Notes under the pieces: model-generated
What the model saw: the letters and a program-made list of their open reading frames with translations, nothing else
Database searches by the model: none
What the model was told of the DNA's origin: nothing
Part shown: in pieces, positions 26,560 to 44,029 of the stretch
How the letters are laid out: each line of letters begins with the position of its first letter
Position numbering within the stretch: position 1 is the first letter of the stretch
From: an uncultured Verrucomicrobiales bacterium
GTDB taxonomy: Bacteria > Verrucomicrobiota > Verrucomicrobiia > Limisphaerales > JAYPXF01
Reading direction: 5' to 3'
Assembly (NCBI GenBank): GCA_937893495.1
Contig: CALBIE010000391.1
Span: 1,363-65,362 of the forward strand
DNA: 64,000 nucleotides
Made by a program: the position numbers and the translations under genes

Positions 26560-27993
26560 ATGGCAAAGCCGGTTACACACATTTGTCACGGGTGCGGGAA
26601 TGGCATTCCGCACGATGCTGAAGCAACAGGTAAGACTGTTTCGTGTCCGTATTGTGCAGTAGCGACCGAACTGGGAAAAATCTACCCGACATCTGAAATG
26701 TCCCGTGCGAATCCATGGGACGAGAGCGAGGAAGCCTCCCCGGAACAAACAGCTGAGATAACGGCACAAGGTTACCAATCCCCCCCTCCCCTTCCAAGGA
26801 AAGATGCCGATTCCACCGCTGACGTCGGCGAATCTGAGCAATCAATTCGTGGCCGCTCGGTGCGCAAGCGCGAACAGCCCGTAAAGGCTAACACTGAAGG
26901 AGGATCCTTGTTATTTCTTAGAGGATTCTTGTTAACGCTTTTGGGCATGGCTGCTGGGTTCGCTCTGGGTTTTAACTACCAAGATTCGATAAGCCCTGCT
27001 GTTACTAATCCGAGCACCGGGGAGCTGAACCCCGTCTTAATGGCCTTCAACGTGTTTGTGGGGTGTTGCGGAGCGGCTATCGGAGGAGTCATTGGGATTT
27101 TGTCACACTTGGTTTTGAAAGAATTTACAAAGCAGGATAAGGCGGGAGGCGGTATTGCCATCAGCCTATCCGAGATAATCGTCATTGCCGTCATGATCGC
27201 GGGCGTAATCTTTTCCACGCAGTTCGAATTCAAGGGACGTAGCGGCGCCAATCCGGTCAAGGTGGCAAAACTCGAACACGTCGTTTCAACGAATGAGACC
27301 AAGCCGAACAAGCCGGTGGTATCTCAAACGAATACCGACCCGACCAATCCGGAACTGGTCAGGTGGCAAAACAAAATGACCAAAGAAGGTCTCGAGAAGG
27401 TGAACCAGCTGCCAATTCCAATTCAATTGGCCTTGAAGGGGCGGGCCACCAAGGATGGGCAGGGAAACATTTCGATGAGTTTCCGGGAGTCCAAGATCGA
27501 CGACCTTTCAGGGATCAATGCCCTGCCCGTGACCGAACTCGATTTGGACTTGACCGGCATCCGGAACCTGAAGCCCTTGGAGGGCCTAAAGCTCCGGGTC
27601 CTGAAGCTTTACAATACCAGGGTGACCGACCTTCGCCCACTTTCGGACATGCCCTTGAATGTCCTGTTCATTAACAGCCCCGTCGCCGACCTGGAACCGC
27701 TGCGCGGAATGCCCTTGACAAACATGGCGGTCGTTTCGTCTGCAGTTGTGGATATCAGACCGTTGGCAGGAATGAAATTGAACAAGCTGTGGATTGCGAG
27801 CGATCGACTTGTGAGTCTTGCCTCCTTGAAGGGACAGCCGATCGAGAATCTCGAACTGGGTTGCCCGTCGATTTCGGATCTGTCGCCTCTGCTGGAATGC
27901 AGGCAGCTAAAGCGGTTGACGATTCACCCCAACCTGAACAAACGCGCCGGGATCCTCCTCCGTCATCCGTCATTGACCAACATTGTGAATTAG
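26560..27993 (+). CDS. mosaic-family protein: zinc ribbon - NPWDE - S/T-rich juxtamembrane motif - 3 TM - LRR-like module 2
   Basis: 477-aa ORF. MAKPVTHICHGCGNGIPHDAEATGKTVSCPYC; NPWDESEE; PRKDADSTADVGESEQSIRGRSV; three hydrophobic helices. C-terminal LRR-like repeats ending HPSLTNIVN, paralogous to the tail of the 28074 gene. Confidence 0.9.
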   Translation: MAKPVTHICHGCGNGIPHDAEATGKTVSCPYCAVATELGKIYPTSEMSRANPWDESEEASPEQTAEITAQGYQSPPPLPRKDADSTADVGESEQSIRGRSVRKREQPVKANTEGGSLLFLRGFLLTLLGMAAGFALGFNYQDSISPAVTNPSTGELNPVLMAFNVFVGCCGAAIGGVIGILSHLVLKEFTKQDKAGGGIAISLSEIIVIAVMIAGVIFSTQFEFKGRSGANPVKVAKLEHVVSTNETKPNKPVVSQTNTDPTNPELVRWQNKMTKEGLEKVNQLPIPIQLALKGRATKDGQGNISMSFRESKIDDLSGINALPVTELDLDLTGIRNLKPLEGLKLRVLKLYNTRVTDLRPLSDMPLNVLFINSPVADLEPLRGMPLTNMAVVSSAVVDIRPLAGMKLNKLWIASDRLVSLASLKGQPIENLELGCPSISDLSPLLECRQLKRLTIHPNLNKRAGILLRHPSLTNIVN

Positions 27994-28073
27994 TAAGCAC
28001 ACGGACGATTGGGAAAAGGCCCCATACGTCGAAAAGTTCCAGACAAAGTATCACTCTCAACATCATCGACCGA

Positions 28074-30644
28074 ATGATTAAGTTGCTACCTCTACTTGGC
28101 CTCGTTTTCTATATCGTGGCGGTTTCCCGTGCAGTCCCTTGTGCAAAAGAACGAGGTCTCAAGCCTCTCCACATCTGGCTGGCCGCCATCCCGCTATGGT
28201 TTTTCAATCAGGTAATTGCGGGTCCGCTGATCTTGGTTCCAATCCTAAGACTTCTAGGACCCCTTGCAGGTCTGTTCTATCACTCGCAGTTTTGGCAGGG
28301 GCTATTGGTTTTCTTGCTGATCCGGATCTTTCGCCGCCCTCGGAAAGAGGCCGATTCCAGCACTGACGTCGGCGAATCTGAGCAGTCAGTTCGTGGCCGC
28401 TCGGTATTCGTTCAGATGTCGAGAGGCGTCTTGTTGGGCGGGGCCGCTGGAGTAGTGGTGATATTGATCGCCGTCTCGCAGATGTTCGGTGCTGATGCGG
28501 GCGGGTTTATGATTGTCTTCGGAGGACCCCTGCTCGTGTTGGCAATCATCGGCGCTTCAGCGTACTTGGCAATCGGACGGTTCACGAACGGAAGCAGACG
28601 GTCTCGTCGCCCGGCGACCGGGTTGCGATGGATCGCCGCACTGTTGCTGGTATTTGGAATCGCCTACGCCGCGTCGCTATTCAATCGGCCCAGAGCGAAT
28701 CTGCCCAAACCCGTGGCCAGTGCAAACGCCGAACGAAGCCAGTGCCTGAAACATCTCAAAGAAATCGTGCTTGCCTTCAAGATATTCGCGGAGAAAAACG
28801 ATGGTCGGTTCCCCTTTGAATTCGAAGGCCCACCGGGAACAAAACCGTTTGTCAAACGTGATTCCAACGGCGACGAAATCGATCCCTTCCGCCATTTCTT
28901 GACGCTGAGCAACCAACTCGGTTCAACCAGGCTACTCACCTGTCCCAGTGACAAATCACGGAAAATGGCGGCCGATTGGACCTCGTTCCGTTTGGCTAAC
29001 ATCACCTACAAACTCCGAACCGGTCCGCAGGTCAACGGGATGCAGAATAACCAGAACGTGCTGATGTGGTGCCCGATTCACTTTACCCGCGCCTATTGTG
29101 ACAGTTCGGTCGGGCTGGGAAATCAGAGGCAGTTACTTGAAGCCATCGAGGCCGGAAAGAAGGCAAGTGTCAAACCACGCCCGGTGGATCGATCGCCAAA
29201 CAAATCGAAGGCTCTCGCTTCCAATTCTCCGCCCTTCCAAGAGCGATCCGACAATCCCGCCACGCCGAATCGGGTCACAAAGCGAAAGGCGAGGGCGAAT
29301 CCCCGGCCTACTCCAGAGCCACTCTGGCAGGGGAAAATTCCGACCATTCCAGTCCAACAGTTTACCAACGCTTACGCTCCAACGAACGGTCTCGTCGCGT
29401 GGTATCCCTTCAACGGCAATGTGCAGGATGAGAGCGGGAACGAACGCCATGCAACCAATCGTGGCGCGCGGTTCGTGCCAGATCGTTTTGGCGTGTCCGA
29501 TGGGGCGCTGAGATTTGACGGGAAACAATTTGTTGATTGCGGGACCAACAGCGTTTTCGAGTTGGGTAAACAGGGCAGCCTGGGATGCTGGATGTTACCG
29601 TTTGAAAGAACCGGCCCCTTGGTCGGCAAGGATTCCCTAAAGTTTCACGACGACATCCAGTTGGGAGTCAATCCCCACAACAAGGCCCGCGGGAAAATCG
29701 CGATGGCAATGAGCCCGAAGGAGGGCGAGCAAATCCGCCTTGCAACGGGCCCGGAAATCACGCCGGGCAAGTGGTATCACGTGCTGGGCCAATGGGACAC
29801 CAACGGCTTTCGCCTGTTTGTCAATGGGAAGCAAGTCGCCGAAAATACCGGTGACTATCGGGTTCATGCCGCTGGACACCCGCTGCTCATTGGGCGCTTT
29901 CAGACCAGTGAATACTTCAAAGGAATCATCGACGATGTTGCCATCTATAATCGGGCGCTGAGCGGCAACGAAGTGGAATCGCTTCATCGCTATTCCGAGT
30001 TGGCCCACTGCCAGAGCAGGCTGGAAAAGCAAGGTCTCGATCAGGTGAATCAATTGCCGACAAAGCTGCAATTGGCATTGATGGGCCGGGTATCCAAGGA
30101 CGCAGGCGGGAATCTGTCCATGAGTTTCAAGGATTCGAAAATACGCGACCTCTCCGGCCTCAACGGACTGCCGTTGACACGCCTCAATCTGGATGGAACC
30201 GGTGTTGCCGACTTGACTCCGCTGACGGGGTTGCGACTTCGTGAACTCAAACTCTGGGGAACACAGGTGACCAATCTGCAGGCGCTTTCGAAGATGCCAA
30301 TCAATGTCCTTTTCGTCGCCAGTCCGGTTGTTGACCTGGAACCCCTTCGGCACTGCCCGTTGGAGAATTTGTGGATTCTTTCGAAGAACCTCGCGGACAT
30401 CAGCCCGTTGACGGGAATGGAGTTGAACAATTTGTGGATTGGGAGCGACCGACTGGAGGATATTTCCGCATTGAAGGGACAGCCGATCGAGATACTCCGG
30501 TTGGACGGGTGTCCGTCCATTGCGGACTTTTCGCCTTTACTGGAGTGCAAGCGGCTGAAGCGCCTGAAGATTCATCCGAAACTGACCAACCAAATCGAAT
30601 TCCTCCGCGCGCATCCGCCATTGACCGACATTGTCAACCAATAG
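28074..30644 (+). CDS. mosaic-family protein: polytopic TM with S/T-rich motif - pilin-like segment - LamG domain - LRR-like module 2
   Basis: Met at 28074 (MIKLLPLLGLVFYIVAV) chosen, because the ORF-track start at 27789 overlaps the preceding gene out of frame. PRKEADSSTDVGESEQSVRGRSV; SQCLKHLKEIVLAFKIFAEKNDGRFP (pseudopilin/DUF1559-like); LamG about three-quarters identical by eye to that of the 23754 gene; LRR-like tail ending HPPLTDIVNQ. Confidence 0.9.
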   Translation: MIKLLPLLGLVFYIVAVSRAVPCAKERGLKPLHIWLAAIPLWFFNQVIAGPLILVPILRLLGPLAGLFYHSQFWQGLLVFLLIRIFRRPRKEADSSTDVGESEQSVRGRSVFVQMSRGVLLGGAAGVVVILIAVSQMFGADAGGFMIVFGGPLLVLAIIGASAYLAIGRFTNGSRRSRRPATGLRWIAALLLVFGIAYAASLFNRPRANLPKPVASANAERSQCLKHLKEIVLAFKIFAEKNDGRFPFEFEGPPGTKPFVKRDSNGDEIDPFRHFLTLSNQLGSTRLLTCPSDKSRKMAADWTSFRLANITYKLRTGPQVNGMQNNQNVLMWCPIHFTRAYCDSSVGLGNQRQLLEAIEAGKKASVKPRPVDRSPNKSKALASNSPPFQERSDNPATPNRVTKRKARANPRPTPEPLWQGKIPTIPVQQFTNAYAPTNGLVAWYPFNGNVQDESGNERHATNRGARFVPDRFGVSDGALRFDGKQFVDCGTNSVFELGKQGSLGCWMLPFERTGPLVGKDSLKFHDDIQLGVNPHNKARGKIAMAMSPKEGEQIRLATGPEITPGKWYHVLGQWDTNGFRLFVNGKQVAENTGDYRVHAAGHPLLIGRFQTSEYFKGIIDDVAIYNRALSGNEVESLHRYSELAHCQSRLEKQGLDQVNQLPTKLQLALMGRVSKDAGGNLSMSFKDSKIRDLSGLNGLPLTRLNLDGTGVADLTPLTGLRLRELKLWGTQVTNLQALSKMPINVLFVASPVVDLEPLRHCPLENLWILSKNLADISPLTGMELNNLWIGSDRLEDISALKGQPIEILRLDGCPSIADFSPLLECKRLKRLKIHPKLTNQIEFLRAHPPLTDIVNQ

Positions 30645-30714: not shown

Positions 30715-32397
30715 TTAGTTTCGGTTGGTTTTTTTCAGTTTATTGTATACGAGAAAGAAAAAGGAGATCCCAAACAAATTGAACAGGATCATCAACGGCA
30801 TCCCCCATGTTGATTTCTTGCTCAATTCATTTTTGACCAGCGCGTGCTGCTCAATCAATGACTTCAGAATGTTTGGCGCCGTTGCTCGGGTTGGCCAACT
30901 ATTGCTCTCGATGACATAGCTTTGTCCTCCACGAGGCAAATAACGATAATCTCGAACGTGTGTTTGTCCGGTGATTTTTGGCAGAATCAAGGATGCGTCC
31001 GGTAATTCGTGGATAATCTTGTTTGTCACCGTGCCCCAAATACGCATTTCCAGATACGTGGGAACATTGGTCGGCGTTACTGCCCACAAATTCAATCCGT
31101 AGTGACTCGAGGTAAATTTGTCCGGTATCAACGCCCGGCCTTCCTTGGTGATATTCTCGGCAAGGATCTCTGTTGCCACCAAGCCGTGGGCTTCTTCGGC
31201 ATTGGGGATCGGAAAATCAACCAAAGTCTTCTTGTCCGCCGCCCACGTCTTGTGGTCCTTGGGATACAGTAAGCGAATTCTAACTTTATCAGCGACGTTG
31301 GTGGTCTTAACCCAAAACAGCAAACCCACATCGCCTGGCAAAATGCCTCGGACTTGATTGGTTGTTGGGTGCGCCCGAAAGTAGTCAAATCCGGTGAATG
31401 CGTACCAAAGCGCCTGCTCAAACTGCGTCGTTGCAAGTGGATAGTCACGCTCATTGATCCGGCCGAGTTCCGTAAACTTTTCAAGATTGGTTCTCCCGCT
31501 TTCCTTCGCCAGTCTCTCGACGACCTCGAGCGAAAAACTGTAGTACTGAAATGAATCTTGGCCGTCGAATCCGACCGCGGTGTATCGGCTCCCCTTGTCT
31601 CGAAATTTACTCCCAATCGGATCGGTCGTCTTGATCCACCATTGACGATCTTCCGTTGAAACACGGACGGAAAAGAGAATATTTCTCGAGGTTCGCGGTT
31701 TGCCTTGCCTGGTGTAGCTGGTGATTTTCATTACTCCTTGCGATTCAACCAATTTGGCCGAAACGCTGGTTTGCATAAGCCCCCCAAAGCCAAGGAGGTA
31801 AAGAGCGAGCATGAAAAACAACGCTCCGGACTTTTCATGAAGACCTCCAGCGATGGTTCGTTGTCGCGTCGATGATAGTTGTTTCGGTAATTTCGTGGAT
31901 TGGTGAAATCCTCTGGCACCAATGGCACGGCCGGTAGTCCAATCCCCGATTACAGCGATTTCCGAATCTCTATGGGAGAGAATTGATCTCATCGCGTTAC
32001 AAAAGAGACGTTTGATTTCGACGTATTTCTCCAGCTTCCTTGGGATTAGCTCCTTGAGCCATATTGCACTAACATCTCCAATGTAGTTCTCGTTCGTCAA
32101 GTTGAAAGAGTGATCGTAACCGTTCACGGTGTCAGGAATACGGCGTAGAATACCGAGCCCATAAATCCTTTTTGTCGGGTGTGGCATCACATTTTCGTTG
32201 GTTACGCCGGATGGGAACGGCCACGGCTTAGAAGAGACGCTGCACAGCGCAGCTTTTTTTTTTGGCGGCATATCGCGCCCAGAAACATTCCCTGAGGCAG
32301 GGGTTTTGCAGGCGAGATACCACGGGCGTCCGTGCTCGTGTGGTGTCCGATTCGATACAACTTCGCCGGAGCGAAGGCAAAGTTCGGGCGGATACAA
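30715..32397 (-). CDS. hypothetical protein with internal and C-terminal hydrophobic helices, in an AT-richer patch; start codon uncertain
   Basis: 560-aa ORF with no recognisable motif. Alternative starts are at 32271 (MPPKKKAAL, immediately followed by an A10 tract) and further downstream (MLALYLLGFGGLMQTSVSA, signal-like). C-terminal helix WGMPLMILFNLFGISFFFLVY + KLKK. Composition is visibly AT-richer than the flanks. Confidence 0.6.
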   Translation of the reverse strand: MYPPELCLRSGEVVSNRTPHEHGRPWYLACKTPASGNVSGRDMPPKKKAALCSVSSKPWPFPSGVTNENVMPHPTKRIYGLGILRRIPDTVNGYDHSFNLTNENYIGDVSAIWLKELIPRKLEKYVEIKRLFCNAMRSILSHRDSEIAVIGDWTTGRAIGARGFHQSTKLPKQLSSTRQRTIAGGLHEKSGALFFMLALYLLGFGGLMQTSVSAKLVESQGVMKITSYTRQGKPRTSRNILFSVRVSTEDRQWWIKTTDPIGSKFRDKGSRYTAVGFDGQDSFQYYSFSLEVVERLAKESGRTNLEKFTELGRINERDYPLATTQFEQALWYAFTGFDYFRAHPTTNQVRGILPGDVGLLFWVKTTNVADKVRIRLLYPKDHKTWAADKKTLVDFPIPNAEEAHGLVATEILAENITKEGRALIPDKFTSSHYGLNLWAVTPTNVPTYLEMRIWGTVTNKIIHELPDASLILPKITGQTHVRDYRYLPRGGQSYVIESNSWPTRATAPNILKSLIEQHALVKNELSKKSTWGMPLMILFNLFGISFFFLVYNKLKKTNRN

Positions 32398-32716
32398 TTA
32401 ACAGAAAAAGGCCCGTTAGAATCCGCACCGGATTCTTTAGTAGTGGGGTAAAGCAAAGATGGATCAATCACGAGGAATTCACGCTCATCGCATTGCCACG
32501 GTTGATGTTTGGCAAAAGGCAATCGATTCGACCAAGGACGTCCCAACGTGCATAATTGGCAGCGTGCCAAGGAAATCATCACCCGTTACCACCCCCTCAC
32601 CAGGCTCTATCAAATTGAGCCGATCCGCGCGACCACGTGGCTGACAGTATGATTAGAAGGAGTCCCGAGCCGATAAGCGGTTCGGATTTCCCGGATATGG
32701 AAGACGACCGAAACCC

Positions 32717-35329
32717 ATGGAAGGATTGAAACAAACTCTCCCGGTGACTTATCTCCTGTTTACATGGAGAGGCAGGATCTCCCGATCGGAGTATTGGCAT
32801 GCCGTGGTCCTTGTCTCGTGCTCGCTCTACATCCTTTTTCACGGCATCGAGTTTCTCTTTGGCGCGGGCGCAACCTGGATTCTCTACCCGCTGTATTTCT
32901 GGAGTATGGCGGCGACTTCGAGCAAGCGGTTGCATGATTCGGGGCGCTCAGGTTACTGGCTGGCCTGGTCATTGATTCCAGTTTTCGGGCCGCTCTATCT
33001 GGTCTGGCTTTTGTTCTTGAGGGGTGGAATACAGGCCGCGAACGAATACGGTGCCGCGCCTGGATCCGCGGATGATTACCTGAAGAACGATTCGGGCCAA
33101 CCGGTGTCGCGGGCAGATTCCGAACAACGGATCATTAACGATGTCACTCAACTCAATCCGGTGGTGGTAAAAAAAGTCCTGCGACCCGAGTCGGTTGACG
33201 AGATCTGCAGTATCATCCGGGAAAGCGTCGGACCCATCTCGGTGGGTGGTGGCCGCTTCAGCATGGGCGGGCAGACTGCCAGCCCGGAAAGTATCCATCT
33301 GGACCTCCGCGGTCTGAACAAAGTGCTCGATTTTTCCATGGAGGACCGGTGGATCAAGGTCGAGGCCGGGATTCGCTGGTGCGATATCCAGCGGCATATC
33401 GATCCGCATGATCTCAGTGTGAAGATCATGCAATCGTACGCCAACTTCACCGTCGGTGGCTCCCTGAGTGTCAATTCCCATGGCCGTTACATGGGCCTTG
33501 GGCCGCTGATCTTGTCCGTCCGTTCCATCGATGTCGTGCTCCCGGACGGTTCACTGATTCACGCCTCGCAGACGGAAAACTCAGAAATCTTCTTTGGCGC
33601 GATTGGAGGTTACAACGGGATTGGCATCATCGTGGTGGCGGAGCTGGATCTGGAGGTCAATACGCCGGTTCGCCGGGTTCACCGCAAGATGCCCATCGCC
33701 CGTTACGTGGACGATTTCCTCGCGAACGTCAGGCCCAGTCAAACCGCCGTGTTTCATAATGCCGATATCTATCCGCCCGACTATGCCCGCGCCCGGTCGG
33801 TGACCTGGGAAAAGACGACGGAAACACCGACAGTGCCGACCAGGCTGATGCCGCTGAGGCAGTCGTATCCGTTTCATCGGTATTTGCTCTGGGCCTTCAG
33901 TGAGACCCCGCTGGGCCGGTGGCGCCGGGAATTCGTCATTGAGCCGCTTCTTTATCTGGGGAAAAGAATCCACTGGCGAAACTACGAAGCCGGTTACGAC
34001 GTGGCGGAGCTTGAGCCGGGCTCAAGAGCCAACAGCACCTACGTGCTGTTGGAGTACTTCGTGCCAATCGGCAAATTCATGGAGTTTGCAGTCAGGTTGG
34101 CGGAGATCTTCAAGCGCCACCGCGTCATGGTCATGAATATCTCCATTCGTCATGCGAACGCCGATCCTGGAACCCTCCTCGCGTGGGCCCGGGAAGAGGT
34201 CTTCGCCTTCGTCGTTTATTACAAACAAGGAGTGACTGAGGTGGACAGAATCCGGGTCGGTGTGTGGAACCGGGAACTGATCGACGCAGTGATCTCAGTG
34301 GGAGGCACCTACTATCTTCCTTATCAACCGCACGCGACCAGCGAGCAGTTTCATAGGGCCTATCCCGGCGCGAAGAAACTCTTCGACCTGAAAGCCAGAC
34401 TGGATCCGGACAACCGATTCCGTAACGCCATCTGGGACAAGTATTATCAACCAACACGCAACGAAACCATGAGCACAACACCATCCGAATTCAAAACCGT
34501 TTTCAACGACACCTCAATGAAGGACGGCTTCTACCGGTTCCTTCAGGTCGTTTTTCACCTCTATCCCGAGGATCGCTTTCATCACCTGATCGCCGAAACG
34601 TGCAAGAGCGGCAACGGCGACAGCGACATCTACAATTCGGTTCAGGAGCGGTTGCCCGAGATTAAGACTTTCCTCTCCGAATTGACCTACGCTTTACCGG
34701 CATTGAGGAAACAGAAGCGGGAAATGACCAGACAAACCCTAAAGCTTCTGGGGGATCGGAAGCAGATCAACGGTTACCTCGAAATCGGTTCCACCGGACG
34801 CTATATCAGTGACCTGCGAAAGCACGTGCGGGTGTCTGGTGAAATCTTCCTCATCAACGATGTGGCTCCGGACAATTCCATTGGAGAGATATTCGAACGC
34901 GGTCAAATCTCGCGTCTCGGCACTTTTCTGGATCTCGCCGAATACGCGCCCATCGATGCCGGGGGGATTCCCGACGCGAGTATCGATCTGGCCACCTGCT
35001 TCATCGGCTTTCATCATTGCCCGGAGGAGAAACTTGAAGCCTTTGTGAAATCCATCGCCCGCGCGCTCCGGCCCGGCGGTTCACTGATTGTCCGTGACCA
35101 CAATGTCAAGTCAAAGGACATGGCCACGTTTGTCTCGTTGGTTCACACGGTTTTCAACCTGGGTCTGGGGATCCCGTGGGATACCAACTCGAAGGAATAC
35201 CGAAGTTTTCGATCCATCGACGACTGGTGCAAATACATCTGTGGACTCGGATTCACCGATTCCGGGGAGCGGCTTTATCAGGAGAACGATCCCTCGGATA
35301 ACGCACTGGTCATCCTCACAAAAAACTGA
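32717..35329 (+). CDS. three-domain fusion: DUF805 membrane domain - FAD-binding PCMH-type oxidoreductase - class I SAM-methyltransferase-like domain
   Basis: 870-aa ORF. DUF805 signature (WRGRISRSEYWHAVV...SSKRLHDSGRSGYWL...NEYGAAP). FAD_binding_4-like segment (VVKKVLRPESVDEICSIIRESVGPISVGGGRFSMGGQ...GGYNGIGIIV). C-terminal Rossmann-like segment (YLEIGSTGRYISDL...LRPGGSLIVRDHN). Confidence 0.85.
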   Translation: MEGLKQTLPVTYLLFTWRGRISRSEYWHAVVLVSCSLYILFHGIEFLFGAGATWILYPLYFWSMAATSSKRLHDSGRSGYWLAWSLIPVFGPLYLVWLLFLRGGIQAANEYGAAPGSADDYLKNDSGQPVSRADSEQRIINDVTQLNPVVVKKVLRPESVDEICSIIRESVGPISVGGGRFSMGGQTASPESIHLDLRGLNKVLDFSMEDRWIKVEAGIRWCDIQRHIDPHDLSVKIMQSYANFTVGGSLSVNSHGRYMGLGPLILSVRSIDVVLPDGSLIHASQTENSEIFFGAIGGYNGIGIIVVAELDLEVNTPVRRVHRKMPIARYVDDFLANVRPSQTAVFHNADIYPPDYARARSVTWEKTTETPTVPTRLMPLRQSYPFHRYLLWAFSETPLGRWRREFVIEPLLYLGKRIHWRNYEAGYDVAELEPGSRANSTYVLLEYFVPIGKFMEFAVRLAEIFKRHRVMVMNISIRHANADPGTLLAWAREEVFAFVVYYKQGVTEVDRIRVGVWNRELIDAVISVGGTYYLPYQPHATSEQFHRAYPGAKKLFDLKARLDPDNRFRNAIWDKYYQPTRNETMSTTPSEFKTVFNDTSMKDGFYRFLQVVFHLYPEDRFHHLIAETCKSGNGDSDIYNSVQERLPEIKTFLSELTYALPALRKQKREMTRQTLKLLGDRKQINGYLEIGSTGRYISDLRKHVRVSGEIFLINDVAPDNSIGEIFERGQISRLGTFLDLAEYAPIDAGGIPDASIDLATCFIGFHHCPEEKLEAFVKSIARALRPGGSLIVRDHNVKSKDMATFVSLVHTVFNLGLGIPWDTNSKEYRSFRSIDDWCKYICGLGFTDSGERLYQENDPSDNALVILTKN

Positions 35330-35341
35330 AACGCACCATCA

Positions 35342-36460
35342 ATGAGCCGACTCCACAAACTGACCTACTGCTCAGTCGCCATCGCGGCCGCGATGTTTAT
35401 GGGAGTGGGGCGAACTCCTTCAACGCGTATCGTTGCGAACATTGCGAACGTTCCGGCGGACACCGGCAAACATCCGGCACCGGCGACACCGCGAATCCCG
35501 ATCACGCCGCAGGAACATGTGCGCGCCGCAGACCAGACATTTCTGACCTACCCGGAATGGTTTCTCGTTTACGGACCCGCGGAGCAGGCGGAGTTCTTCG
35601 GGAAACAGACCGCAACAAAGTTTCCGTTCATGACCCATGTGGAACAGATTTGGGGCAGCTACGCCGCGGTTTACGATCAGGTGAAAGGCAGGTATCCCTT
35701 CAACAGCGAATACCACACGATGATCATGGTCATCGCGACCAGTTCGACCATCGAATTCTCCCTTAAAGCGGCGTACGAAACGATGATCGGACGCCTGACC
35801 GACACGGCCGATGACGAGCGGATGACGGCGGAGGATGTGTTCAATGCTCGCTTTTCGACCGATTACGTCGAATTTCTGGGTGCGGCACCGTGGTACGAGT
35901 ACAGCTTCACTGCAAAGCTGAAGCAACTATGGACCCAGATTCCACTGATTGGCCGGAACCCGCTCCGAAAACTGGAACGGCGCTATTATCTCACCACGGA
36001 ACTGATCGCGAAAAGCGCCTACGGCTGGTTGATCGGGCTCGGTACCCGTTCGGCGTATGCGGCCCCCATCCTGAAGACCGCCGTCGTCGTCGATCAACTG
36101 CCTGCGGAAATCCTCGCTGCCCTGCCGGACATCGAGATTCTGCGACTGAGTGAGGATGGTTCGCCAGTTGTCCTGTTACCACGTTATGCGGCCTTCAAGC
36201 CGAACCTACAGAAGCTGGCGGCCCGGGGAATTGCGTTCAAGGAGATTGCCGGAAACAACACCGACATTCTGATTACTTTGATCACTCCCCGATCGTGGTC
36301 GTCCTCATCGGAATTGTTCGGAGTCATTTTCACCCAGCCGCTGCCGACGCGAGCGGACCGGCAACGCGTTGCGGTGGTAACCCCGATTGCCAGCCTGGAC
36401 AAGGCATTGCGGCATCTTTCGAACCAACCCATCACGATCGAACATATCTACGATTTTTAA
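35342..36460 (+). CDS. conserved hypothetical protein (signal/anchor at N-terminus)
   Basis: 372-aa ORF, 12 nt after the previous stop and 20 nt before the next ORF, so likely in the same operon. No motif recognised. Confidence 0.75.
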   Translation: MSRLHKLTYCSVAIAAAMFMGVGRTPSTRIVANIANVPADTGKHPAPATPRIPITPQEHVRAADQTFLTYPEWFLVYGPAEQAEFFGKQTATKFPFMTHVEQIWGSYAAVYDQVKGRYPFNSEYHTMIMVIATSSTIEFSLKAAYETMIGRLTDTADDERMTAEDVFNARFSTDYVEFLGAAPWYEYSFTAKLKQLWTQIPLIGRNPLRKLERRYYLTTELIAKSAYGWLIGLGTRSAYAAPILKTAVVVDQLPAEILAALPDIEILRLSEDGSPVVLLPRYAAFKPNLQKLAARGIAFKEIAGNNTDILITLITPRSWSSSSELFGVIFTQPLPTRADRQRVAVVTPIASLDKALRHLSNQPITIEHIYDF

Positions 36461-36486
36461 GGGAGTGAAATACTGAAAATTTGACA

Positions 36487-39400
36487 ATGGTAAAAAGCAA
36501 CGATTCCCACCCACAGGAACGGACGACAGCCGTATTCGACGCCCCTGAACACCCCCACTGGCGGCGGGGATTCTGGAGTCTGTTCGTCACCCAGTTTCAG
36601 GGGGCGTTCAGTGACAACCTGTTCAAGTTCATGGTGGTTTTTTTCATCACCGGAACACTGGCCGAGGCCTCCCGAGATACCTACATCACGATTACGCTGG
36701 CCGTGTTCTCGCTGCCGTTCATCCTGTTTTCCATGGCCGCGGGTTACCTGGCGGATCGGTATCCCAAACGGTCTGTGGTGATTGGCACGAAAGCATTCGA
36801 GGTCGTGGTCATGACTCTTGGCACAATCGGCCTTTGGACACAGAGCATTCCTTTTTTGATCAGCGTCATTTTTCTGATGAGCGTTCAAAGCACGTTTTTC
36901 AGTCCCTCCAAATACGGACTGTTGCCGGAGATGCTGCCGGAATACAAACTGTCCTGGGGTAACGGTATTCTGAGCCTGGGATCATTCTTCGCGATCATCA
37001 GTGGCGGTGTCCTGGCGGGTGTCCTGTCCGCCCGATTGGGGGATGACCGCTGGCAGGCGGGGTTTCTGTTGATCGGTCTGGCGCTGGTCGGTCTAACTTC
37101 GAGTCTGGGGATTCTCAAACTCAAGCCGGCGGATCCGAACAAGCAGTTCCGCATCAATTTCCTCACGGAAATCTGGATCAACATCGGCAAGATCCGCGGT
37201 GATCGTGTTCTGCTGCTGGCAATCGCCGGGTCCACCTATTTCTGGTTCGTGGGCGCGCTGTTCGGCGAGCCCACCATACTGATCTACGGCAAGGACGTGC
37301 TCAATCTTTCGGACGAAGGCGTGAGCCTGCTGCGCGCGTGCCTGGCAATTGGAATTGGTGTCGGCAGTGCCGTGGCGGGAATTCTATCCGGTAAAAAGAT
37401 AGAATACGGGCTCGTTCCGCTGGGCGCATTTGGATTGGCGACGTCCGCCGCCTTGCTGTCGATACCGGGACTGAACTTTCCGATGGTCGGAGCCTTGATG
37501 GGGTTGCTGGGATTCTCCGGCGGATTTTACATCGTTCCTTTGCTTGCCCTGGTTCAACACCGGCCACGGTCCGAGGAGAAGGGTTCCATCATTGCCACCA
37601 ACGGGTGGCTGACCTCGTTGGGCGTGTTGTTCGCATCGGGCGCGTTCTGGTTCCTGCGAACCGTTTTGGATCTGTCGCCCGCGCAAATCTTTCTTGTCGG
37701 CGCCATCGTGACCTTCGCGGCAACCATCTACGCCGTCCGACTCATGCCGGATTCGGTGGTACGGCTGGTCATCTGGATGCTGACCCATACCTTTTATCGG
37801 GTGAAAGTGTTGGGTCGTGAGAATATTCCCCTCAAAGGGGGCGCCTTGTTTGTCTCCAATCACCTCTCGCTTTCCGACGCATTTTTCCTCATCGCCTCCA
37901 CGGATCGTCACATCCGTTTCATCATGTTTCAGGGGTTGTACGAGACGTGGTGGATCAAGCCCTTCGCCCGAATGTTGCGCGTGATTCCCATCTCGTCGGA
38001 ACTTCGGCCAAGGGAGATGATCAAGTCGCTTCAGGCGGCATCCGAATGGATCAAATCCGGAAATGTCGTCTGCATCTTTGCCGAAGGACAGATCACGCGC
38101 ATCGGGCAAATGCTCCCGTTCCGCAAAGGCATGCAGAAGATCATGAAGGGTGTTGATGCGCCGATCGTTCCGGTGAATCTCGACGGTGTTTGGGGCAGCA
38201 TTTTCAGTTTCGAAAAAGAGAAATTCTACTGGAAGCTTCCGCGCGAAATTCCTTATCCGGTGACCGTCAGCTATGGGAAGCCGTTGGCGGGAAATGCCCA
38301 GCCGTTCGAAGTGCGGCAGGCGGTGTTGGAGCTGGGTGCCCTTGCCTGGGAGGAGCGTAAGCCGCGCATGCGCACGATGCATCGTTCGTTCGTCGAGACC
38401 GCCCGCGCCAATCGTTCCCGCTTTGCCATGGTGGATGCCGGATCGTCTCGACTGACGTTTGGCACGGCGCTGACCCGCGCAATCTTTGTCGGGAGCCGGC
38501 TGCGCCCGGTTTGGAAGGGCCAGGAAAAGGTGGGCATCCTGTTGCCGCCATCGGTTCCAGGCGCGTTGGTGAACTTCGCGGCGCTGCTGATGGGGAAGGT
38601 TCCCGTCAATCTGAACTACACGCTTTCGGACGATGCGCTGGCTTCGTGCATCAAGCAGTGCGGAATTCAAAACGTCCTGACGTCCGCGAAGTTTCTCAGC
38701 CAACTAAAGGTGAAGGTGCCGGTGGAAACCTTGACGCTCGAAGAGATTGTCGCCAATCCGCGCCCTGTCGAAAAACTCAGCGCATTGTTGCGTTCCTGGC
38801 TTTATCCCGTGAGTTGGATCGAGAAGTCCATCGGACGTGAACGGGCCGTCAGCCTTGACGATCTGGCCACGATCATTTTCTCGAGTGGAAGCACCGGGGA
38901 ACCGAAGGGCGTCATGCTCACCCATTACAACGTGATGTCAAACGTCCAGCAACTGGGCCAGTTGTTTGCCTTCAACAGCCGCGATTCGTTTCTCGGAATA
39001 CTCCCGTTTTTCCATTCCTTCGGATTCATGGGTACGCTGGGTGTACCCGCGGGACTGGGCGTCGGGGTTGCCTATCACGCCAACCCCGTCGATTCAAAAA
39101 CGATTGGTGAACTGGTCCGTTCGAACGCGGTGACGTTTCTTCTGGCAACTCCGACCTTTCTGCAGCTTTACATGCGCGGCTGTCAGCCCGAACAGTTCGG
39201 CAGCGTGCACTTCGCCATGGTCGGTGCGGAAAAATTGCCCGAACGCCTGGCGACGGCGTTTGAAGACAAGTTCGGCATTCGTCCGATGGAGGCGTACGGT
39301 TGCACCGAGTGTTCACCAGCGGTCGCGGTCAATGGTCGCGATTTCCGGTCCGCTGGATTTCGTCAGGTGGGCGGGAAACGCGGCACCATCGGTCATCCCG

Positions 39401-39942
39401 TACCCGGTATGAGTGTGCGCATTGTTGATCCGGAAACGGGGGAACCACAGCCCACCGGCAGCCCCGGACTGATGCTCGTGCGCGGCCCCAATGTGATGAA
39501 GGGCTATCTCGGCCAACCCGAAAAAACGGCGGAAGTTCTCAAGGACGGTTGGTACACGACGGGAGACATCGCGGCTGTCGATGAAGATGGCTTTATTGTC
39601 ATCACGGATCGGCTCAGTCGCTTCAGCAAGATCGGCGGAGAGATGGTTCCTCATATCAAGGTGGAGGAGAAACTGCATGAGTGCGCAGGCGCGACCGAAC
39701 AAACCTTTGCGGTAACCGGGCTTCCCGATGAAAAGAAGGGCGAGAAACTAATCGTGCTGCACACCCTCGCCGAGGAAGCCCTTGCCGCCACATTGGAGAA
39801 GCTGGGTGGCACCGAGCTTCCGAACCTTTGGAAACCGCGGAAGGACCAGTTCTTCAAAGTGGACAAACTTCCTTATCTTGGAACAGGAAAGCTGGACCTG
39901 CGGGCCATCCGGGAAATGGCGAAAGATCTCGCGCAGGCATGA
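36487..39942 (+). CDS. triple fusion: MFS lysophospholipid transporter (LplT-like) - PlsC-type acyltransferase - AMP-binding acyl-ACP/acyl-CoA synthetase (Aas-like)
   Basis: ATG 36487 (the ORF-track TTG is at 36481). About 12 TM helices in the first ~420 aa. Acyltransferase HX4D motif (VSNHLSLSDAF) and FAEGQITR. AMP-binding motifs (IIFSSGSTGEPKGVMLTHYN, TGD, GGEMV..IKVEE). Confidence 0.9.
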   Translation: MVKSNDSHPQERTTAVFDAPEHPHWRRGFWSLFVTQFQGAFSDNLFKFMVVFFITGTLAEASRDTYITITLAVFSLPFILFSMAAGYLADRYPKRSVVIGTKAFEVVVMTLGTIGLWTQSIPFLISVIFLMSVQSTFFSPSKYGLLPEMLPEYKLSWGNGILSLGSFFAIISGGVLAGVLSARLGDDRWQAGFLLIGLALVGLTSSLGILKLKPADPNKQFRINFLTEIWINIGKIRGDRVLLLAIAGSTYFWFVGALFGEPTILIYGKDVLNLSDEGVSLLRACLAIGIGVGSAVAGILSGKKIEYGLVPLGAFGLATSAALLSIPGLNFPMVGALMGLLGFSGGFYIVPLLALVQHRPRSEEKGSIIATNGWLTSLGVLFASGAFWFLRTVLDLSPAQIFLVGAIVTFAATIYAVRLMPDSVVRLVIWMLTHTFYRVKVLGRENIPLKGGALFVSNHLSLSDAFFLIASTDRHIRFIMFQGLYETWWIKPFARMLRVIPISSELRPREMIKSLQAASEWIKSGNVVCIFAEGQITRIGQMLPFRKGMQKIMKGVDAPIVPVNLDGVWGSIFSFEKEKFYWKLPREIPYPVTVSYGKPLAGNAQPFEVRQAVLELGALAWEERKPRMRTMHRSFVETARANRSRFAMVDAGSSRLTFGTALTRAIFVGSRLRPVWKGQEKVGILLPPSVPGALVNFAALLMGKVPVNLNYTLSDDALASCIKQCGIQNVLTSAKFLSQLKVKVPVETLTLEEIVANPRPVEKLSALLRSWLYPVSWIEKSIGRERAVSLDDLATIIFSSGSTGEPKGVMLTHYNVMSNVQQLGQLFAFNSRDSFLGILPFFHSFGFMGTLGVPAGLGVGVAYHANPVDSKTIGELVRSNAVTFLLATPTFLQLYMRGCQPEQFGSVHFAMVGAEKLPERLATAFEDKFGIRPMEAYGCTECSPAVAVNGRDFRSAGFRQVGGKRGTIGHPVPGMSVRIVDPETGEPQPTGSPGLMLVRGPNVMKGYLGQPEKTAEVLKDGWYTTGDIAAVDEDGFIVITDRLSRFSKIGGEMVPHIKVEEKLHECAGATEQTFAVTGLPDEKKGEKLIVLHTLAEEALAATLEKLGGTELPNLWKPRKDQFFKVDKLPYLGTGKLDLRAIREMAKDLAQA

Positions 39943-40054
39943 CCCAATATCAGGCTGGAAGGTTGCCTGGCAGTCCTGAAAACGTGTCGCTCCAGCGCAG
40001 TATGTCTCGTTAAAGCGGGGCGCTGAATTGATCCGGAATCGGGCCCGGCAAATT

Positions 40055-41215
40055 TCATTTCGACAACTCCCGAGGGAGGCTTCCGTCTTCGGTTTTCTCT
40101 CCAGCCAGCAACCACGACAGGTTGAATCGTGCCACCGTTGAACCGCCCTCCGGTCCTCCCTCGAAGTTTAGATAAATCCAACCTTCACTCGGCGTTCCGG
40201 GCCGGCCGGCGTTCAAAGACGAGTACGCGCCGGGTCCGTCATAAACGAGGCGTTTGATCGGCCAGGTTTCGCCGCAGTCGAAACTGGCCCATACCGTGGC
40301 GCGTTCACGCTTCGGGTTCGGCGTGTCGATGTTGCTGAAAATCAGGATGTCTCTGCCCGCGATTGGCAGGCGCACTAATCCGCCCATACACCCATACGAG
40401 CGATGCTGATGACCGTCCGGAAGAATGTCCACGATGCGGAAGCCCGTCCACGTTTCGCCGCCGTCATGACTTATCGCCGATCGGCGACGCGTGTTCTTCG
40501 GTCGTTCCTGCCAGTGGACGCGCGAGTTGTAATAGACGTCTCCACTGCTCAATTCGGCGACAGCGGCCTCACCTGTTCCATTCTCAGGAAACGGATCGCT
40601 GGTGTGCCACGTCTTGCCGTGATCGTCGCTGTAGATGGAGCTGGTGTAATGATTCGGCCATTCGGAGCGATCGTTTTTCTTTCCGTAATAGCGGGATGGC
40701 CGCAAGAGACGACCCTTGTGTTTGCCATGCAGCAGCGTGATTCCGTGCTCGTTCATGTGCATCGAAGGCAGGTTGCCACGGCTGTCCGGATGAACAACCG
40801 GCTTCTCGGGTTGCCAGGTCCTGCCGTCATCGCTGCTGCGATAAACCGTGAGCGCCGCCGGCGGATGGTGGTCTTCAACAAACGCGAGAATGTCGCCAGT
40901 CGTTTCATCGACCGTCGTTCCCCCACCCTGAAAACCGGGGTCGGCAATGGTGATCTCCTCACTCCATGTCTTCCCGCCATCCTCACTGCGACGGGCGCGA
41001 ACCCGTTTGTTGCCCCATGTCACCAGCACCGTGCCTTTCGTCGTCACGACGATATTGGGGAAGCGTTCGCCCTTGAACACCTGCTGCATCTCCATGCGGG
41101 GTTCTCCAAGAAATGAGGCAACCGGGGCTTCAGAGGAATTGCAATGGGCGCACCCCTGCAGGAACGTCAGCGCCACCAATGGAAGAATTACACGCGAAGC
41201 AATCTTGCGAATCAT
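40055..41215 (-). CDS. BNR-repeat exo-alpha-sialidase-like lipoprotein (GH33-like beta-propeller)
   Basis: 386-aa ORF with a lipobox (LTFLQGC) and five SxDxGxTW-type BNR repeats (SEDGGKTWS, SSDDGRTWQ, SDDHGKTWH, SHDGGETWT, FDCGETWP). Confidence 0.85.
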   Translation of the reverse strand: MIRKIASRVILPLVALTFLQGCAHCNSSEAPVASFLGEPRMEMQQVFKGERFPNIVVTTKGTVLVTWGNKRVRARRSEDGGKTWSEEITIADPGFQGGGTTVDETTGDILAFVEDHHPPAALTVYRSSDDGRTWQPEKPVVHPDSRGNLPSMHMNEHGITLLHGKHKGRLLRPSRYYGKKNDRSEWPNHYTSSIYSDDHGKTWHTSDPFPENGTGEAAVAELSSGDVYYNSRVHWQERPKNTRRRSAISHDGGETWTGFRIVDILPDGHQHRSYGCMGGLVRLPIAGRDILIFSNIDTPNPKRERATVWASFDCGETWPIKRLVYDGPGAYSSLNAGRPGTPSEGWIYLNFEGGPEGGSTVARFNLSWLLAGEKTEDGSLPRELSK

Positions 41216-41281: not shown

Positions 41282-44029
41282 TCACTTTTCCAATAACCGA
41301 CGTAGTTCCGCAAGCCTAGTGCCGTTGGCATGAAGGTAATCCTGCTGGGCGCGATAGGCGGCGGCGCGTTCGTTCTGTAGTTTTTTGTATGCCGGATTGT
41401 CGCGCAGTTTCTGGTTCTCGGCTTTCCGCGACTGGTTGATGTCCTCGTCGCTTACGAACGCCTGCGGGTAGGCTGATTCGAGCTTCCTTTGGGCGGCTTC
41501 GCTGGTCGCCACCAGCTTCTGGTAGCCGGCAGAATCCCGATGCTTCCGCCGAAGTCGCTCCAATTCCGCCTTGCGCTGGCTGTCCGGGAGGTCCGCGACC
41601 GCAGGATTCTGTTCGATGAGAAACTGGTCCAGTGCGCGATTGGCGCGATGCGTCGCGTGCAGGAGTTCTTTGTATGCCGGGTTTTCCTGGTTGAGTTTCT
41701 TGCGCAGTTCCAAGGCCGCTTTCTTGAGCTCCTTGTGCGAACTGAAGGCGGCGGGGAAGCGTTGCTTCTTCAGTTCGTCGAGGTCATCGGCCTTCTTGAT
41801 AAGGGCGCGGTATTCCGGATGGCGTTGATAGAGCCACTCATGGGCGTTGACCTTCTGAATGCTGTACTCCTCCTCCAGCGACTTTTTGACCGGGTGTTTG
41901 CCCGCGACGGATTTGATGTGCTCCAGATTGGCGGACTGCCCGCGATGCTTGCGAACCGTGAAAATCTGGATGTTGTCAAAGGCGGCCGGTCGGTCATCCA
42001 CCTGAAACGCGAAGTAGGTCCGTTCCTTGTCGAGAATGGGATGGGTGGCGTAGGCCAGGTGTTCGTGGTCGAGGTGGGCGACCAGTTGGTTGCCGATGAA
42101 CTCGACGGTCATCGTGTACCAGCGATCGGGATCGAAATCGTAGGCGCATTCGCCATGCCGGTAAGAGAAGTAAGGCCCGCTCTCATCCTTGGCGGTCTGG
42201 ACATAAAAGTGATCCGGGCGGATGTGGATGACGGCGTTGTAGTGCCCGTGACTGCCGGTCACGAGCCGGATGTCCTTCGACTTCTGCAGTTGGAAGTCGA
42301 AGCGGATGAGCGCTTCGACGTACTCGGCATCACGGAGATGGATGCGGGTGTTTTCGGATCCGGTTGCAATCCGTTGCAGGTTTCCCTTCGCGGCCGACCA
42401 ATCACCGTTGTACCAAAAGCGCTCACTGGCTTTGCCGGAAAAATGTTCGGCGAAGTAGAGCTGGCGGGGTTCGGTCAAAAGTGGGGCTGATGGAGTTCGG
42501 GCGGAAACATTCCGCCTCCAACCCGCGAGCTTCGCCTTTAGCACACTGACTTTCGCGGGATTTTTGCCGGACAAATCCGATCGTTCGGACGGATCGTCGG
42601 CCAGATGGTAGAGTTCGGTTTTGCCGGTGTCGAATCGCTCGATCAACTTCCAGTCGTCTTTGAGAATGGCTCCACCACTAAAGCCGCCAAGGAAGTGTGG
42701 CGAATCCAAAGGATAGTGCCAATAGAGGGCGTCGCGCTTGATCACTTGAGTCGCTTGTTTCCAGTTTGCGAGCATAGACACACCGTCCACGGGTTGCTCG
42801 CCTGGATAGCCAGATGGAAAACTGGTAGCAGCGGACGTGAGTCCGCTCTGATCGTTCGGGGCCCCGTTGGAAGTTTGAGCCGACTCACGTCGGCTGCTAC
42901 TGGACTGGGTGTTCTGAGCCACTCCCGCCGCGTCAAGCAGTGTGGGGAAAAAATCTGTGTTCACCGTGGGTTCATCACTGACGCCACCAGCACGAATGGT
43001 CTGCGGCCACTGCACGATCAGGGGCACCCGAACGCCGCCCTCATACAGTTCGCTCTTGCCTCCCCGCAACGGGGCGTTGGAGGTCACATTGGTCTCGCCG
43101 CCGTTGTCGCTGGTGAAGATGAAGATCGTGTTCTCCAGCAGTTTCAGATCGGCGAGCTTCGCGCGGATCTTGCCAATGCCGTCGTCGATGCCTTCGAGCA
43201 TGGCCGCAAGATGCGGATTGTGATCGGCGGCCCAGTGATGGCCGGAATCGCCTTTGCCGAGTCCCGCGTCCTCGCAAAGGTAGCAATTCGCCCGACCCGA
43301 TGGTACGGGCGCATGTTTCTTCCGATACTTCGCCACGAGGTCCGGACGGCCGTTGAGAATGGTGTGCGGCGCGTAGTGGGCAAGGTAGAGGAAGAACGGT
43401 TTGTCCTTGTTCCGGTCGATAAACTCAACCGCCTCCAGATTCAGGCGATCAGTCAGGTTCTCGTCTGCGCCAAGCCGGTTGTTGGTGATGTCCAGCCACC
43501 GGATGGGTTGATCGCGAAAGACATACGGCCACGTGTTGGCGCCATTGCCGACGCCTTTCACCTCGCTGCCGAAGTTCCAGTCGAAGCCATGTTCCGTCGG
43601 ACGAGTTTCATCCTCGGCCCCCTGAAACCTGTATCCCGTCAGATGCCACTTGCCGATCATACCGGTGGCATAGCCGTTCTTCTTCAACACCTCTGGAAGC
43701 GTCACCAGATCGGTGGACAATCGATTCGCCGAATTTGGACGGAGATAATCGAGAATGCCCAGTCGCGCCGGATGTTGGCCGGTCAACAACGCCGCACGAT
43801 ACGGCGAGCAGACCGGGGCCGCAGCGTAGGCTTGGGTGAAGAGCGTGCCTTCCTTCGCCATCCGGTCGAGGTTGGGTGTTTCATTGAACCTGTTGCCGTA
43901 GCAACCCAGTTCGGCCCAGCCGAGATCATCGGCGAGGACAAAGACGATGTTGGGTTTTGCGGCCGAACTGGCGTTCAGAGCGAACAGCAGACAGCCGGAG
44001 AACAGTAGCGTTGTCAGATGGTTCGTCAT
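41282..44029 (-). CDS. sulfatase (canonical CSPYR FGly motif) with C-terminal LamG/DUF1080-like domain and helical-repeat tail
   Basis: 915-aa ORF. KPNIVFVLADDLGWAELGCYGN, AAAPVCSPYRAALLTGQ, GKWHL. After about residue 500 there is a jelly-roll-like segment (WYNGDWSAAKGNLQ...AFDNIQIF), then repeated NPAYKELL / PEYRALIKK / SAGYQKLV / NPAYKKLQ helical motifs. Confidence 0.9.
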   Translation of the reverse strand: MTNHLTTLLFSGCLLFALNASSAAKPNIVFVLADDLGWAELGCYGNRFNETPNLDRMAKEGTLFTQAYAAAPVCSPYRAALLTGQHPARLGILDYLRPNSANRLSTDLVTLPEVLKKNGYATGMIGKWHLTGYRFQGAEDETRPTEHGFDWNFGSEVKGVGNGANTWPYVFRDQPIRWLDITNNRLGADENLTDRLNLEAVEFIDRNKDKPFFLYLAHYAPHTILNGRPDLVAKYRKKHAPVPSGRANCYLCEDAGLGKGDSGHHWAADHNPHLAAMLEGIDDGIGKIRAKLADLKLLENTIFIFTSDNGGETNVTSNAPLRGGKSELYEGGVRVPLIVQWPQTIRAGGVSDEPTVNTDFFPTLLDAAGVAQNTQSSSSRRESAQTSNGAPNDQSGLTSAATSFPSGYPGEQPVDGVSMLANWKQATQVIKRDALYWHYPLDSPHFLGGFSGGAILKDDWKLIERFDTGKTELYHLADDPSERSDLSGKNPAKVSVLKAKLAGWRRNVSARTPSAPLLTEPRQLYFAEHFSGKASERFWYNGDWSAAKGNLQRIATGSENTRIHLRDAEYVEALIRFDFQLQKSKDIRLVTGSHGHYNAVIHIRPDHFYVQTAKDESGPYFSYRHGECAYDFDPDRWYTMTVEFIGNQLVAHLDHEHLAYATHPILDKERTYFAFQVDDRPAAFDNIQIFTVRKHRGQSANLEHIKSVAGKHPVKKSLEEEYSIQKVNAHEWLYQRHPEYRALIKKADDLDELKKQRFPAAFSSHKELKKAALELRKKLNQENPAYKELLHATHRANRALDQFLIEQNPAVADLPDSQRKAELERLRRKHRDSAGYQKLVATSEAAQRKLESAYPQAFVSDEDINQSRKAENQKLRDNPAYKKLQNERAAAYRAQQDYLHANGTRLAELRRLLEK

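Follow-up and report, generated by a model that had tools for sequence, protein, structure and literature searches.

Two adjacent genes in a 64,000-nucleotide stretch of DNA from an uncultured Verrucomicrobiales bacterium (GenBank contig CALBIE010000391.1, positions 1,363 to 65,362), here called gene 1 and gene 2, probably encode a membrane enzyme system of four parts, which is autonomous, horizontally scattered among bacteria and separate from gene 3, the gene that follows, and whose chemistry we infer to be an oxidation. The whole stretch is referred to as the window and its numbering is used throughout. Gene 1 combines a DUF805 membrane anchor, a flavin adenine dinucleotide (FAD) dehydrogenase domain and a methyltransferase fold. 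This architecture, whether fused or split, is denoted type A; in type B, FAD and gene 2 domains form one chain and the methyltransferase-like protein is separate. A preliminary description had read genes 1 to 3 as one lipid-remodelling operon. The features concerned are as follows.

32717-35329, + strand: gene 1, open reading frame (ORF) of 870 amino acids, ATG start; fused form of type A (DUF805 + FAD + methyltransferase fold)
32759-33052, + strand: DUF805 anchor of gene 1, residues 15-112 (PF05656, 56.7 bits against a cutoff of 25.7)
33119-34450, + strand: PCMH/VAO-type FAD dehydrogenase domain of gene 1, about residues 135-578
34484-35326, + strand: class I methyltransferase-fold domain of gene 1, about residues 590-870, with a helical N-terminal cap
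35342-36460, + strand: gene 2, ORF of 372 amino acids, ATG start
36481-39942, + strand: gene 3, ORF of 1153 amino acids, TTG start; LplT (MFS)-PlsC-Aas fusion with the Pfam domains MFS_1 (residues 43-385), Acyltransferase (440-566) and AMP-binding (639-1010)

Gene order in other bacteria separates genes 1 and 2 from gene 3. A scan of one genome per species yielded 79 loci with a gene 1 relative, mostly from Bacteroidota and also from Leptospiraceae, Phycisphaerales, Thermoanaerobaculia, Alphaproteobacteria and Chlorobiota. According to tblastn, gene 1 is followed immediately by a gene 2 relative in 73 of them, the remaining six being cut by contig ends. By the same method, none of the 79 showed an LplT-Aas relative at a distance of up to 10 kb from gene 1, and no further conserved neighbor of the module emerged from these loci. 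The closest homologs (62-68% identity), namely P0012, P0009 and the Gimesia aquarii protein P0019, keep the pair of gene 1 and gene 2 as well, followed by differing genes (a sigma-54 regulator, a Peptidase_S74 protein, CN_hydrolase); LplT-Aas was also not found in the four contexts of closest gene 1 homologs. Conversely, the three regions fetched around gene 3 relatives from related genomes contain neither gene 1 nor gene 2. The co-occurrence of the three genes, suggested earlier as a check, thus turned out negative: they are not syntenic elsewhere, and the proposed three-gene operon is not borne out. Gene 2, in contrast, had been regarded as an unknown passenger; judged by its constant position and by its fusions to gene 1, it is an obligate partner of that gene.

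Fusions point in the same direction. Gene 1 is split near residue 580 in 68 of the 79 loci, giving a DUF805 + FAD gene (~580 residues) and a methyltransferase-like gene (~285 residues). Genes 1 and 2 form a single polypeptide of about 1200 residues in P0118, P0119 and P0155 (44-45% identical to gene 2 of the window), whereas P0231, P0236, P0260 and P0261 have the FAD domain fused straight to the gene 2 domain. At L105, L106 and L107, FAD-gene 2 fusions are accompanied by a separate methyltransferase-like gene, and P0172 unites signal peptide, FAD domain, methyltransferase fold and gene 2 domain in one chain. Since the parts are co-inherited and are found fused or split in every combination, these Rosetta-stone fusions indicate that they act together, and we predict with high confidence that anchor, FAD dehydrogenase, methyltransferase fold and gene 2 make up one four-part functional unit. 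The module is found in Bacteroidota, Planctomycetota, Verrucomicrobiota, Leptospira, Acidobacteriota and others; full-length homologs of gene 1 number more than 3200 across phyla, at 53-70% identity.

Among the junctions of the split genes (L003, L005, L006, L008, L009, L010, L012, L015 and others), 11 of the 68 lie in the same frame, with one stop and 1-3 codons in between; the others have a 4-11 nt overlap of genes in different frames. It is conceivable that read-through now and then yields a fused product. We rejected the idea that a programmed frameshift or read-through links the separate FAD and methyltransferase genes, as junction frame and spacing vary and no uniform recoding signal is present. 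In L055 and L068, which represent two Segetibacter metagenome-assembled genomes, ~1 kb of extra sequence (about 11746-12769) lies between the FAD and methyltransferase-like genes. An extracytoplasmic function (ECF) sigma factor, considered as a conserved regulator, was likewise rejected, because it is adjacent only in L085 and L105 and absent from the 79 loci.

Some variants have additional membrane proteins. An alpha/beta hydrolase of ~330-345 residues, anchored in the membrane, accompanies the module in unrelated lineages, either beside it or within it (L009:2386-3423; L011:482-1474, - strand; L013:13737-14735; L105:10351-11367); the copies are 30-45% mutually identical and the window has none. 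In variants devoid of DUF805, a small DUF4383 membrane protein stands beside the FAD and gene 2 genes (L111:8673-9107, - strand; L109:107-484, - strand) and may take the anchor role there.

Gene 3 belongs to a different unit. It matches NCBIfam NF006386 (PRK08633, acyl-[ACP]--phospholipid O-acyltransferase) over residues 27-1151 of 1153 with 1362.6 bits, the curated cutoff being 1221, and possesses the PlsC acyltransferase motif HLSLSD (HX4D) at residue 461 and the adenylation motif SSGSTGEPKG at residue 801. Score, domain order and both motifs thus uphold the earlier assignment of an LplT-PlsC-Aas triple fusion. Compared with lplT-aas of Escherichia coli, gene 3 matches the full-length fused form of the family and nothing notable differs. 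Natural LplT-Aas fusions are known, though biochemically uncharacterised (PMC11416262). Relatives of gene 3, fused or split, were present in all 21 related genomes searched, with up to 58-69% identity, so gene 3 is resident in the lineage. It is, by homology, a housekeeping lysophospholipid flippase/re-acylase of an already catalogued family and by itself brings nothing new.

The gene 1-2 module is, on the other hand, rare in the lineage of the window, occurring in one of 41 genomes of the order and three of 301 genomes of the phylum. As it is also not accompanied by LplT-Aas elsewhere, its position next to gene 3 is a local juxtaposition by chance, and the module looks horizontally acquired here. 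We compared the flanks of three gene 3 relatives; they share no neighbors, and an insertion event was not demonstrated. We conclude with high confidence that the stretch consists of two unrelated units, gene 3 and genes 1-2. Relatives from the order contain distant FAD-domain-only paralogs with 27-32% identity (G001:C94:51556-52935; G035:C5:79679-81058), and a distance of about 7 kb around them gave no match to a methyltransferase or to gene 2.

What the preliminary description had said of the layout itself agrees with the ORF list and Pfam: three + strand ORFs with the domains it named, separated by 12 nt (gene 1/gene 2) and 20 nt (gene 2/gene 3). Its reading of gene 1 as a fusion of DUF805, PCMH-type FAD and Rossmann methyltransferase-fold domains is confirmed by Pfam and by a structural model. 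Gene 3 has an alternative ATG start at 36487. No terminator-like site was found between genes 2 and 3, which makes their co-transcription plausible in the window. Rfam with permissive filters revealed no riboswitch or other RNA in 32000-40500, and none of the three proteins matched PADLOC defence models.

Next, we examined the parts of gene 1. Its DUF805 region has strong hydrophobic segments at residues 30-48 and 82-100, plus one weaker segment. In the flavoprotein domain, FAD_binding_4 (PF01565) matches residues 153-283 with 72.1 bits (gathering score 26.4). ALO (PF04030) matches residues 443-574 weakly, where 17.1 bits fall short of the cutoff of 23.1; on this family P0260 and P0261, relatives of type B, score 27-29 bits. 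The preliminary description had likened gene 1 to the pair BfaA/BfaB and proposed to check the FAD domain against BfaA, DprE1 and ALO families. A profile of the FAD family (alignment A3), run against PDB sequences, gave DprE1 (decaprenylphosphoryl-beta-D-ribose 2'-oxidase) 70 bits (E 1e-18), cytokinin oxidase (CKX) 61, GLDH 60, xylitol oxidase 55 and VAO 31, whereas BfaA sequences obtained only 15-17 bits. The segment GGGRFSMGG at residue 177 of gene 1 aligns to GLGRSYGD of DprE1, and a histidine for covalent FAD attachment is missing. Since scores are high for DprE1, ALO and CKX and low for BfaA, the flavoenzyme is assigned, by sequence comparison, to the alcohol/amine-oxidising DprE1/ALO/CKX branch of the VAO superfamily, outside the BfaA branch, with presumably non-covalent FAD. 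The characterised member of the BfaA branch reduces a methylene group.

DprE1 is the best match among solved structures and resembles the window enzyme in being a PCMH-type protein with non-covalent FAD and no GHS histidine; it is, furthermore, membrane-associated and has an obligate second protein, DprE2. The likeness ends there. Alignment is confined to the FAD-binding lobe and one C-terminal segment, the gene 1 family has its DUF805 anchor, and DprE2 is a short-chain dehydrogenase/reductase, whereas the partners in the gene 1 family are a methyltransferase fold and a gene 2 protein with no solved structural relative. The diderm phyla carrying the gene 1 family are not known to have arabinan. 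The aldonolactone/alditol oxidoreductases (GLDH, ALO, GULO, xylitol oxidase; TIGR01678, PF04030) share the VAO branch and a cap that is weakly recognisable as ALO, and their eukaryotic members are membrane-associated dehydrogenases. They differ in having no methyltransferase or gene 2 partner; the window protein falls short of their models (60 against 397 bits, and 17 against 23 for PF04030), and the motifs YYLPYQxHAT and HWRNYEAGYD of the gene 1 family depart from theirs.

Sequence profiles cover only part of the methyltransferase-fold domain. Methyltransf_11 and Methyltransf_25 match gene 1 only at residues 750-792, with the second half of the profiles; for Methyltransf_11 the score is 29.5 bits against 21.2 and only profile positions 55-95 are covered. 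The AlphaFold model of the region (predicted local distance difference test score, pLDDT, 92) displays seven strands in canonical order and a helical cap. Foldseek related it with probability 1.00 to many methyltransferases at template modelling (TM) scores of 0.4-0.5 and 13-18% identity. Chimeras of DnrK, RdmB and TamK were the top matches, and PsoF, the CurJ C-MT domain, RebM, Coq5 and phosphatidylethanolamine N-methyltransferase also appeared, so that the structural neighbors of the modelled domain are generic small-molecule O-/C-methyltransferases. Likeness to RdmB and TamK comprises the class I fold and these top-ranking chimeras, yet at 13-17% identity and TM about 0.4 it is a likeness of predicted fold alone. 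Motif I, which had been called atypical, was located at residue 689, where EIGSTGRY offers GxxG instead of GxGxG, and this form is conserved in the family. Invariant across types A and B are YxEIGxxG, IGxHH, RDH, HxVFNxG and QxxDPxxN.

Gene 2 is predicted to begin with an N-terminal hydrophobic helix (residues 4-22), to continue with long helices packed into a bundle (65-238) and to end in an alpha/beta domain (245-369); the model has pLDDT 87 and a predicted TM score of 0.84. Foldseek found no match for this model in the PDB (best E 0.13, TM below 0.2). Pfam assigned no family to gene 2 and NCBIfam only a chance-level match, and Pfam scans of 30 homologs produced single chance matches with no family in more than one member. 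The family is nonetheless large: an E limit of 1e-3 gave 1381 representative clusters (50% identity level) and a limit of 1e-30 gave 424. Among representatives of standalone gene 2 proteins, 103 of 116 carry the N-terminal hydrophobic helix. Many charged and aromatic residues are invariant throughout, which suggests that gene 2 is an enzyme or a specific binding protein. The invariant positions include E72, W73, E138, K142, Y145, E146, R209, K210, R213, R281, Y282, N305, E367, H368 and D371.

The location of these proteins relative to the membrane was examined in both architectures. Standalone methyltransferase-like proteins of type B are 313-345 residues long and begin with canonical twin-arginine (Tat) signal peptides, e.g. 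MERRDFLKFVSIIIGLSYAQK. Among 120 homologs, 100 have RR followed by a hydrophobic stretch, 14 have KR or RK, and the other 6 are mostly truncated gene calls. The genes and proteins to which this refers are the following.

L105:6964-8004: type B methyltransferase-like gene
L107:2686-3618: type B methyltransferase-like gene
P0275-P0393: type B methyltransferase-like proteins

FAD-gene 2 fusions of type B start with Sec-like signal peptides and contain no hydrophobic helix further inside. With Tat and Sec-like signals on its proteins, type B looks periplasmic. In split type A loci, by contrast, none of the 68 methyltransferase-like genes encodes a signal peptide, and at most 27 open codons precede them, so these proteins must, as far as sequence can tell, be cytoplasmic. 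For the window proteins themselves, charge bias and hydropathy leave the topology ambiguous. We know of no described class I methyltransferase fold exported via Tat, and a search of the literature for "periplasmic methyltransferase" returned nothing relevant. The Tat-exported fold is the most surprising element of the whole comparison, yet it lies outside the architecture of the window.

What, then, might the gene 1-2 system do? The following scheme is proposed with low confidence and by analogy. A membrane-tethered flavoenzyme would oxidise a hydroxyl (CH-OH) or amine (CH-NH) on a membrane- or envelope-bound substrate, the likeliest being a lipid-linked sugar or polyol-type head group. Such a head group appears likelier than an acyl chain because of the branch to which the flavoenzyme belongs and the missing CMAS signature discussed below. 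Relatives of the flavoenzyme pass electrons to quinone or cytochrome c, and here the electrons would probably enter the quinone pool, as with the nearest relatives. The methyltransferase fold and gene 2 would then take over the oxidised intermediate; methyl transfer or another step assisted by S-adenosylmethionine (SAM) would be followed by further conversion or hand-over. The membrane context is given by the DUF805 anchor and the anchor helix of gene 2, and the membrane-anchored alpha/beta hydrolase recurs nearby.

Several observations weigh against an autonomous oxidising system of this kind. Its chemistry is deduced from superfamily relatives only. All NCBIfam equivalog cutoffs failed (DprE1 NF053785, 68.3 bits against 500; TIGR01678, 60.3 against 396.8), and known specificity is therefore not transferable to the FAD domain. 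The position which we take to be that of the catalytic Lys418 of DprE1 reads Tyr here, within YYLPYQ, in an alignment that is weak (13 bits). In canonical methyltransferases, strand 2 ends in an acidic residue that binds the ribose of SAM; Asp is kept at this place in about 90% of type A and lost in type B, and because of this loss the methyl-transfer step is uncertain. The topology signals conflict, with no signal peptide in the 68 split type A proteins against Tat signals in 100 of 120 type B proteins. Finally, P0089 (L115:5001-7274), an FAD-methyltransferase protein with 63% identity, stands alone without DUF805 or a neighboring gene 2, perhaps as a remnant, perhaps as a variant system. Its gene comes after a GNAT acetyltransferase gene, with a 6-nt gap.

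The conflict of topology signals allows three possible readings: the system may work on either membrane face according to lineage, the fold may not consume SAM, or the topology rules may mislead. Tat signals on the type B homologs make it doubtful whether the fold is a SAM-consuming methyltransferase. RdmB-type enzymes (RdmB, TamK) keep SAM as a fixed cofactor and do not consume it, and such a use would reconcile Tat export with function. It is possible, though doubtful, that all catalytic domains of the system face the periplasm and act on an envelope component from outside, as argued for DprE1. DUF805 would then form three helices with the N-terminus inside and the C-terminus outside, the N-terminal helix of gene 2 would direct its export, and the methyltransferase fold would be non-turnover, either a binding module or the holder of a fixed cofactor, be it SAM or some other ligand. 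Such an orientation fits the Sec-like signals and absence of internal transmembrane helices in type B FAD-gene 2 fusions, the RR (100) or KR/RK (14) motifs of the 120 methyltransferase-like partners and the signal peptide heading the P0172 fusion. It fits equally the hydrophobic N-terminal helix of gene 2 in 103 of 116 representatives, the strongly positive N-terminus of the DUF805 consensus, the N-terminal anchor of the recurrent hydrolase, the loss of the ribose-binding acidic position in type B and the presence of RdmB/TamK-type enzymes among the top structural matches. It is at odds with the 68 split type A loci, whose methyltransferase-like proteins have no signal and no more than 27 open codons upstream, and with the fact that about 90% of type A sequences retain the Asp that binds ribose. 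In all-in-one fusions, moreover, a hydrophobic helix still separates the methyltransferase fold from the gene 2 part; the final helix of DUF805 is followed by Lys/Arg residues, and Sec export with non-covalent FAD would require FAD to be available in the periplasm. A more specific version is rather unlikely and we offer it tentatively: genes 1-2 would form an envelope-modifying system in which the methyltransferase-fold subunit is no methyltransferase and carries a fixed cofactor, either SAM in catalytic use or a different ligand, working with the DprE1-like dehydrogenase and gene 2 on a lipid-linked or envelope substrate. This version is raised by the predicted export of the folded type B protein via Tat to the periplasm, where a supply of SAM is not known. 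If true, the methyltransferase fold would have a periplasmic role not described so far, and gene 2 would represent a new family of enzymes.

The earlier analogy, by which a BfaA/BfaB-like pair methylenates and then reduces phospholipid-bound unsaturated acyl chains in one operon with LplT-Aas, is very unlikely in the light of these comparisons. Some observations do speak for it. In the known system (PMC5660069, PMC7791843), a PF01565 flavoprotein and a SAM-dependent protein of Rossmann methyltransferase fold are encoded adjacently and both act at the membrane, and an engineered BfaA-B fusion outperforms the separate genes (PMC7791843). Using the BfaA and BfaB sequences from Additional file 3 of that paper, we verified that BfaA is, as had been stated, a PCMH-type flavoprotein (51 bits on PF01565). 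The spacing of 12 and 20 nt in the window, with no terminator-like site between genes 2 and 3, is also what one operon would show. The methyltransferase domain, however, was checked against CFA-synthase/BfaB families with a negative outcome: T. curvata BfaB scores 331 bits on PF02353 (CMAS), while residues 575-870 of gene 1 gave no match to this family at E up to 1, their pairwise comparison with BfaB reached E 0.11, and no CFA synthase occurs among the top 50 Foldseek matches. Together with the preference of the FAD profile for DprE1 (70 bits) over BfaA (15-17 bits), this leaves the analogy unsupported. Synteny with LplT-Aas was never found elsewhere among the loci examined, and homologs of the methyltransferase fold bear Tat signals in the sister architecture. 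Moreover, the analogy leaves out gene 2, the one invariant partner, and BfaAB has neither a gene 2 nor a DUF805 partner. It is still less credible, indeed extremely so, that genes 1-2 are a chance or decaying pair, a horizontally acquired remnant without function in this genome. The module is indeed very rare in the lineage, and the close homolog P0089 has lost DUF805 and its gene 2 neighbor; but both ORFs of the window are intact and of full length, they are 62-70% identical to their nearest homologs over 100% of the length, and every family-invariant residue checked is present. The autonomous four-part system thus remains the reading that we favor.

We searched the literature for the combination of DUF805, FAD and methyltransferase domains and found nothing relevant. 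The gene 1-2 system is uncharacterised in the literature searched and is built from known superfamilies and one new family, gene 2. With more than 3200 homologs of gene 1 and 1381 clusters of gene 2, the module is a large, strongly conserved and widespread enzyme system. DprE1 is a validated drug target acting on a lipid-linked sugar. Because this nearest characterised relative acts on such a substrate, a related and widespread system is a plausible new piece of envelope biochemistry. Predicted Tat export in the sister architecture moreover poses a sharp and testable question, namely the role of the fold where no source of SAM is known.

The wider surroundings of the three genes in the window include two Laminin_G_3 paralogs, a BNR/sialidase-like gene, two sulfatases and a Fic-domain gene, the surrounding genes lying at 23754-26519, 27789-30644, 40055-41215 (- strand), 41282-44029 (- strand), 45004-46743 (- strand) and 48625-49899. 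This is a polysaccharide-degrading kind of neighborhood, not related to the system described here.

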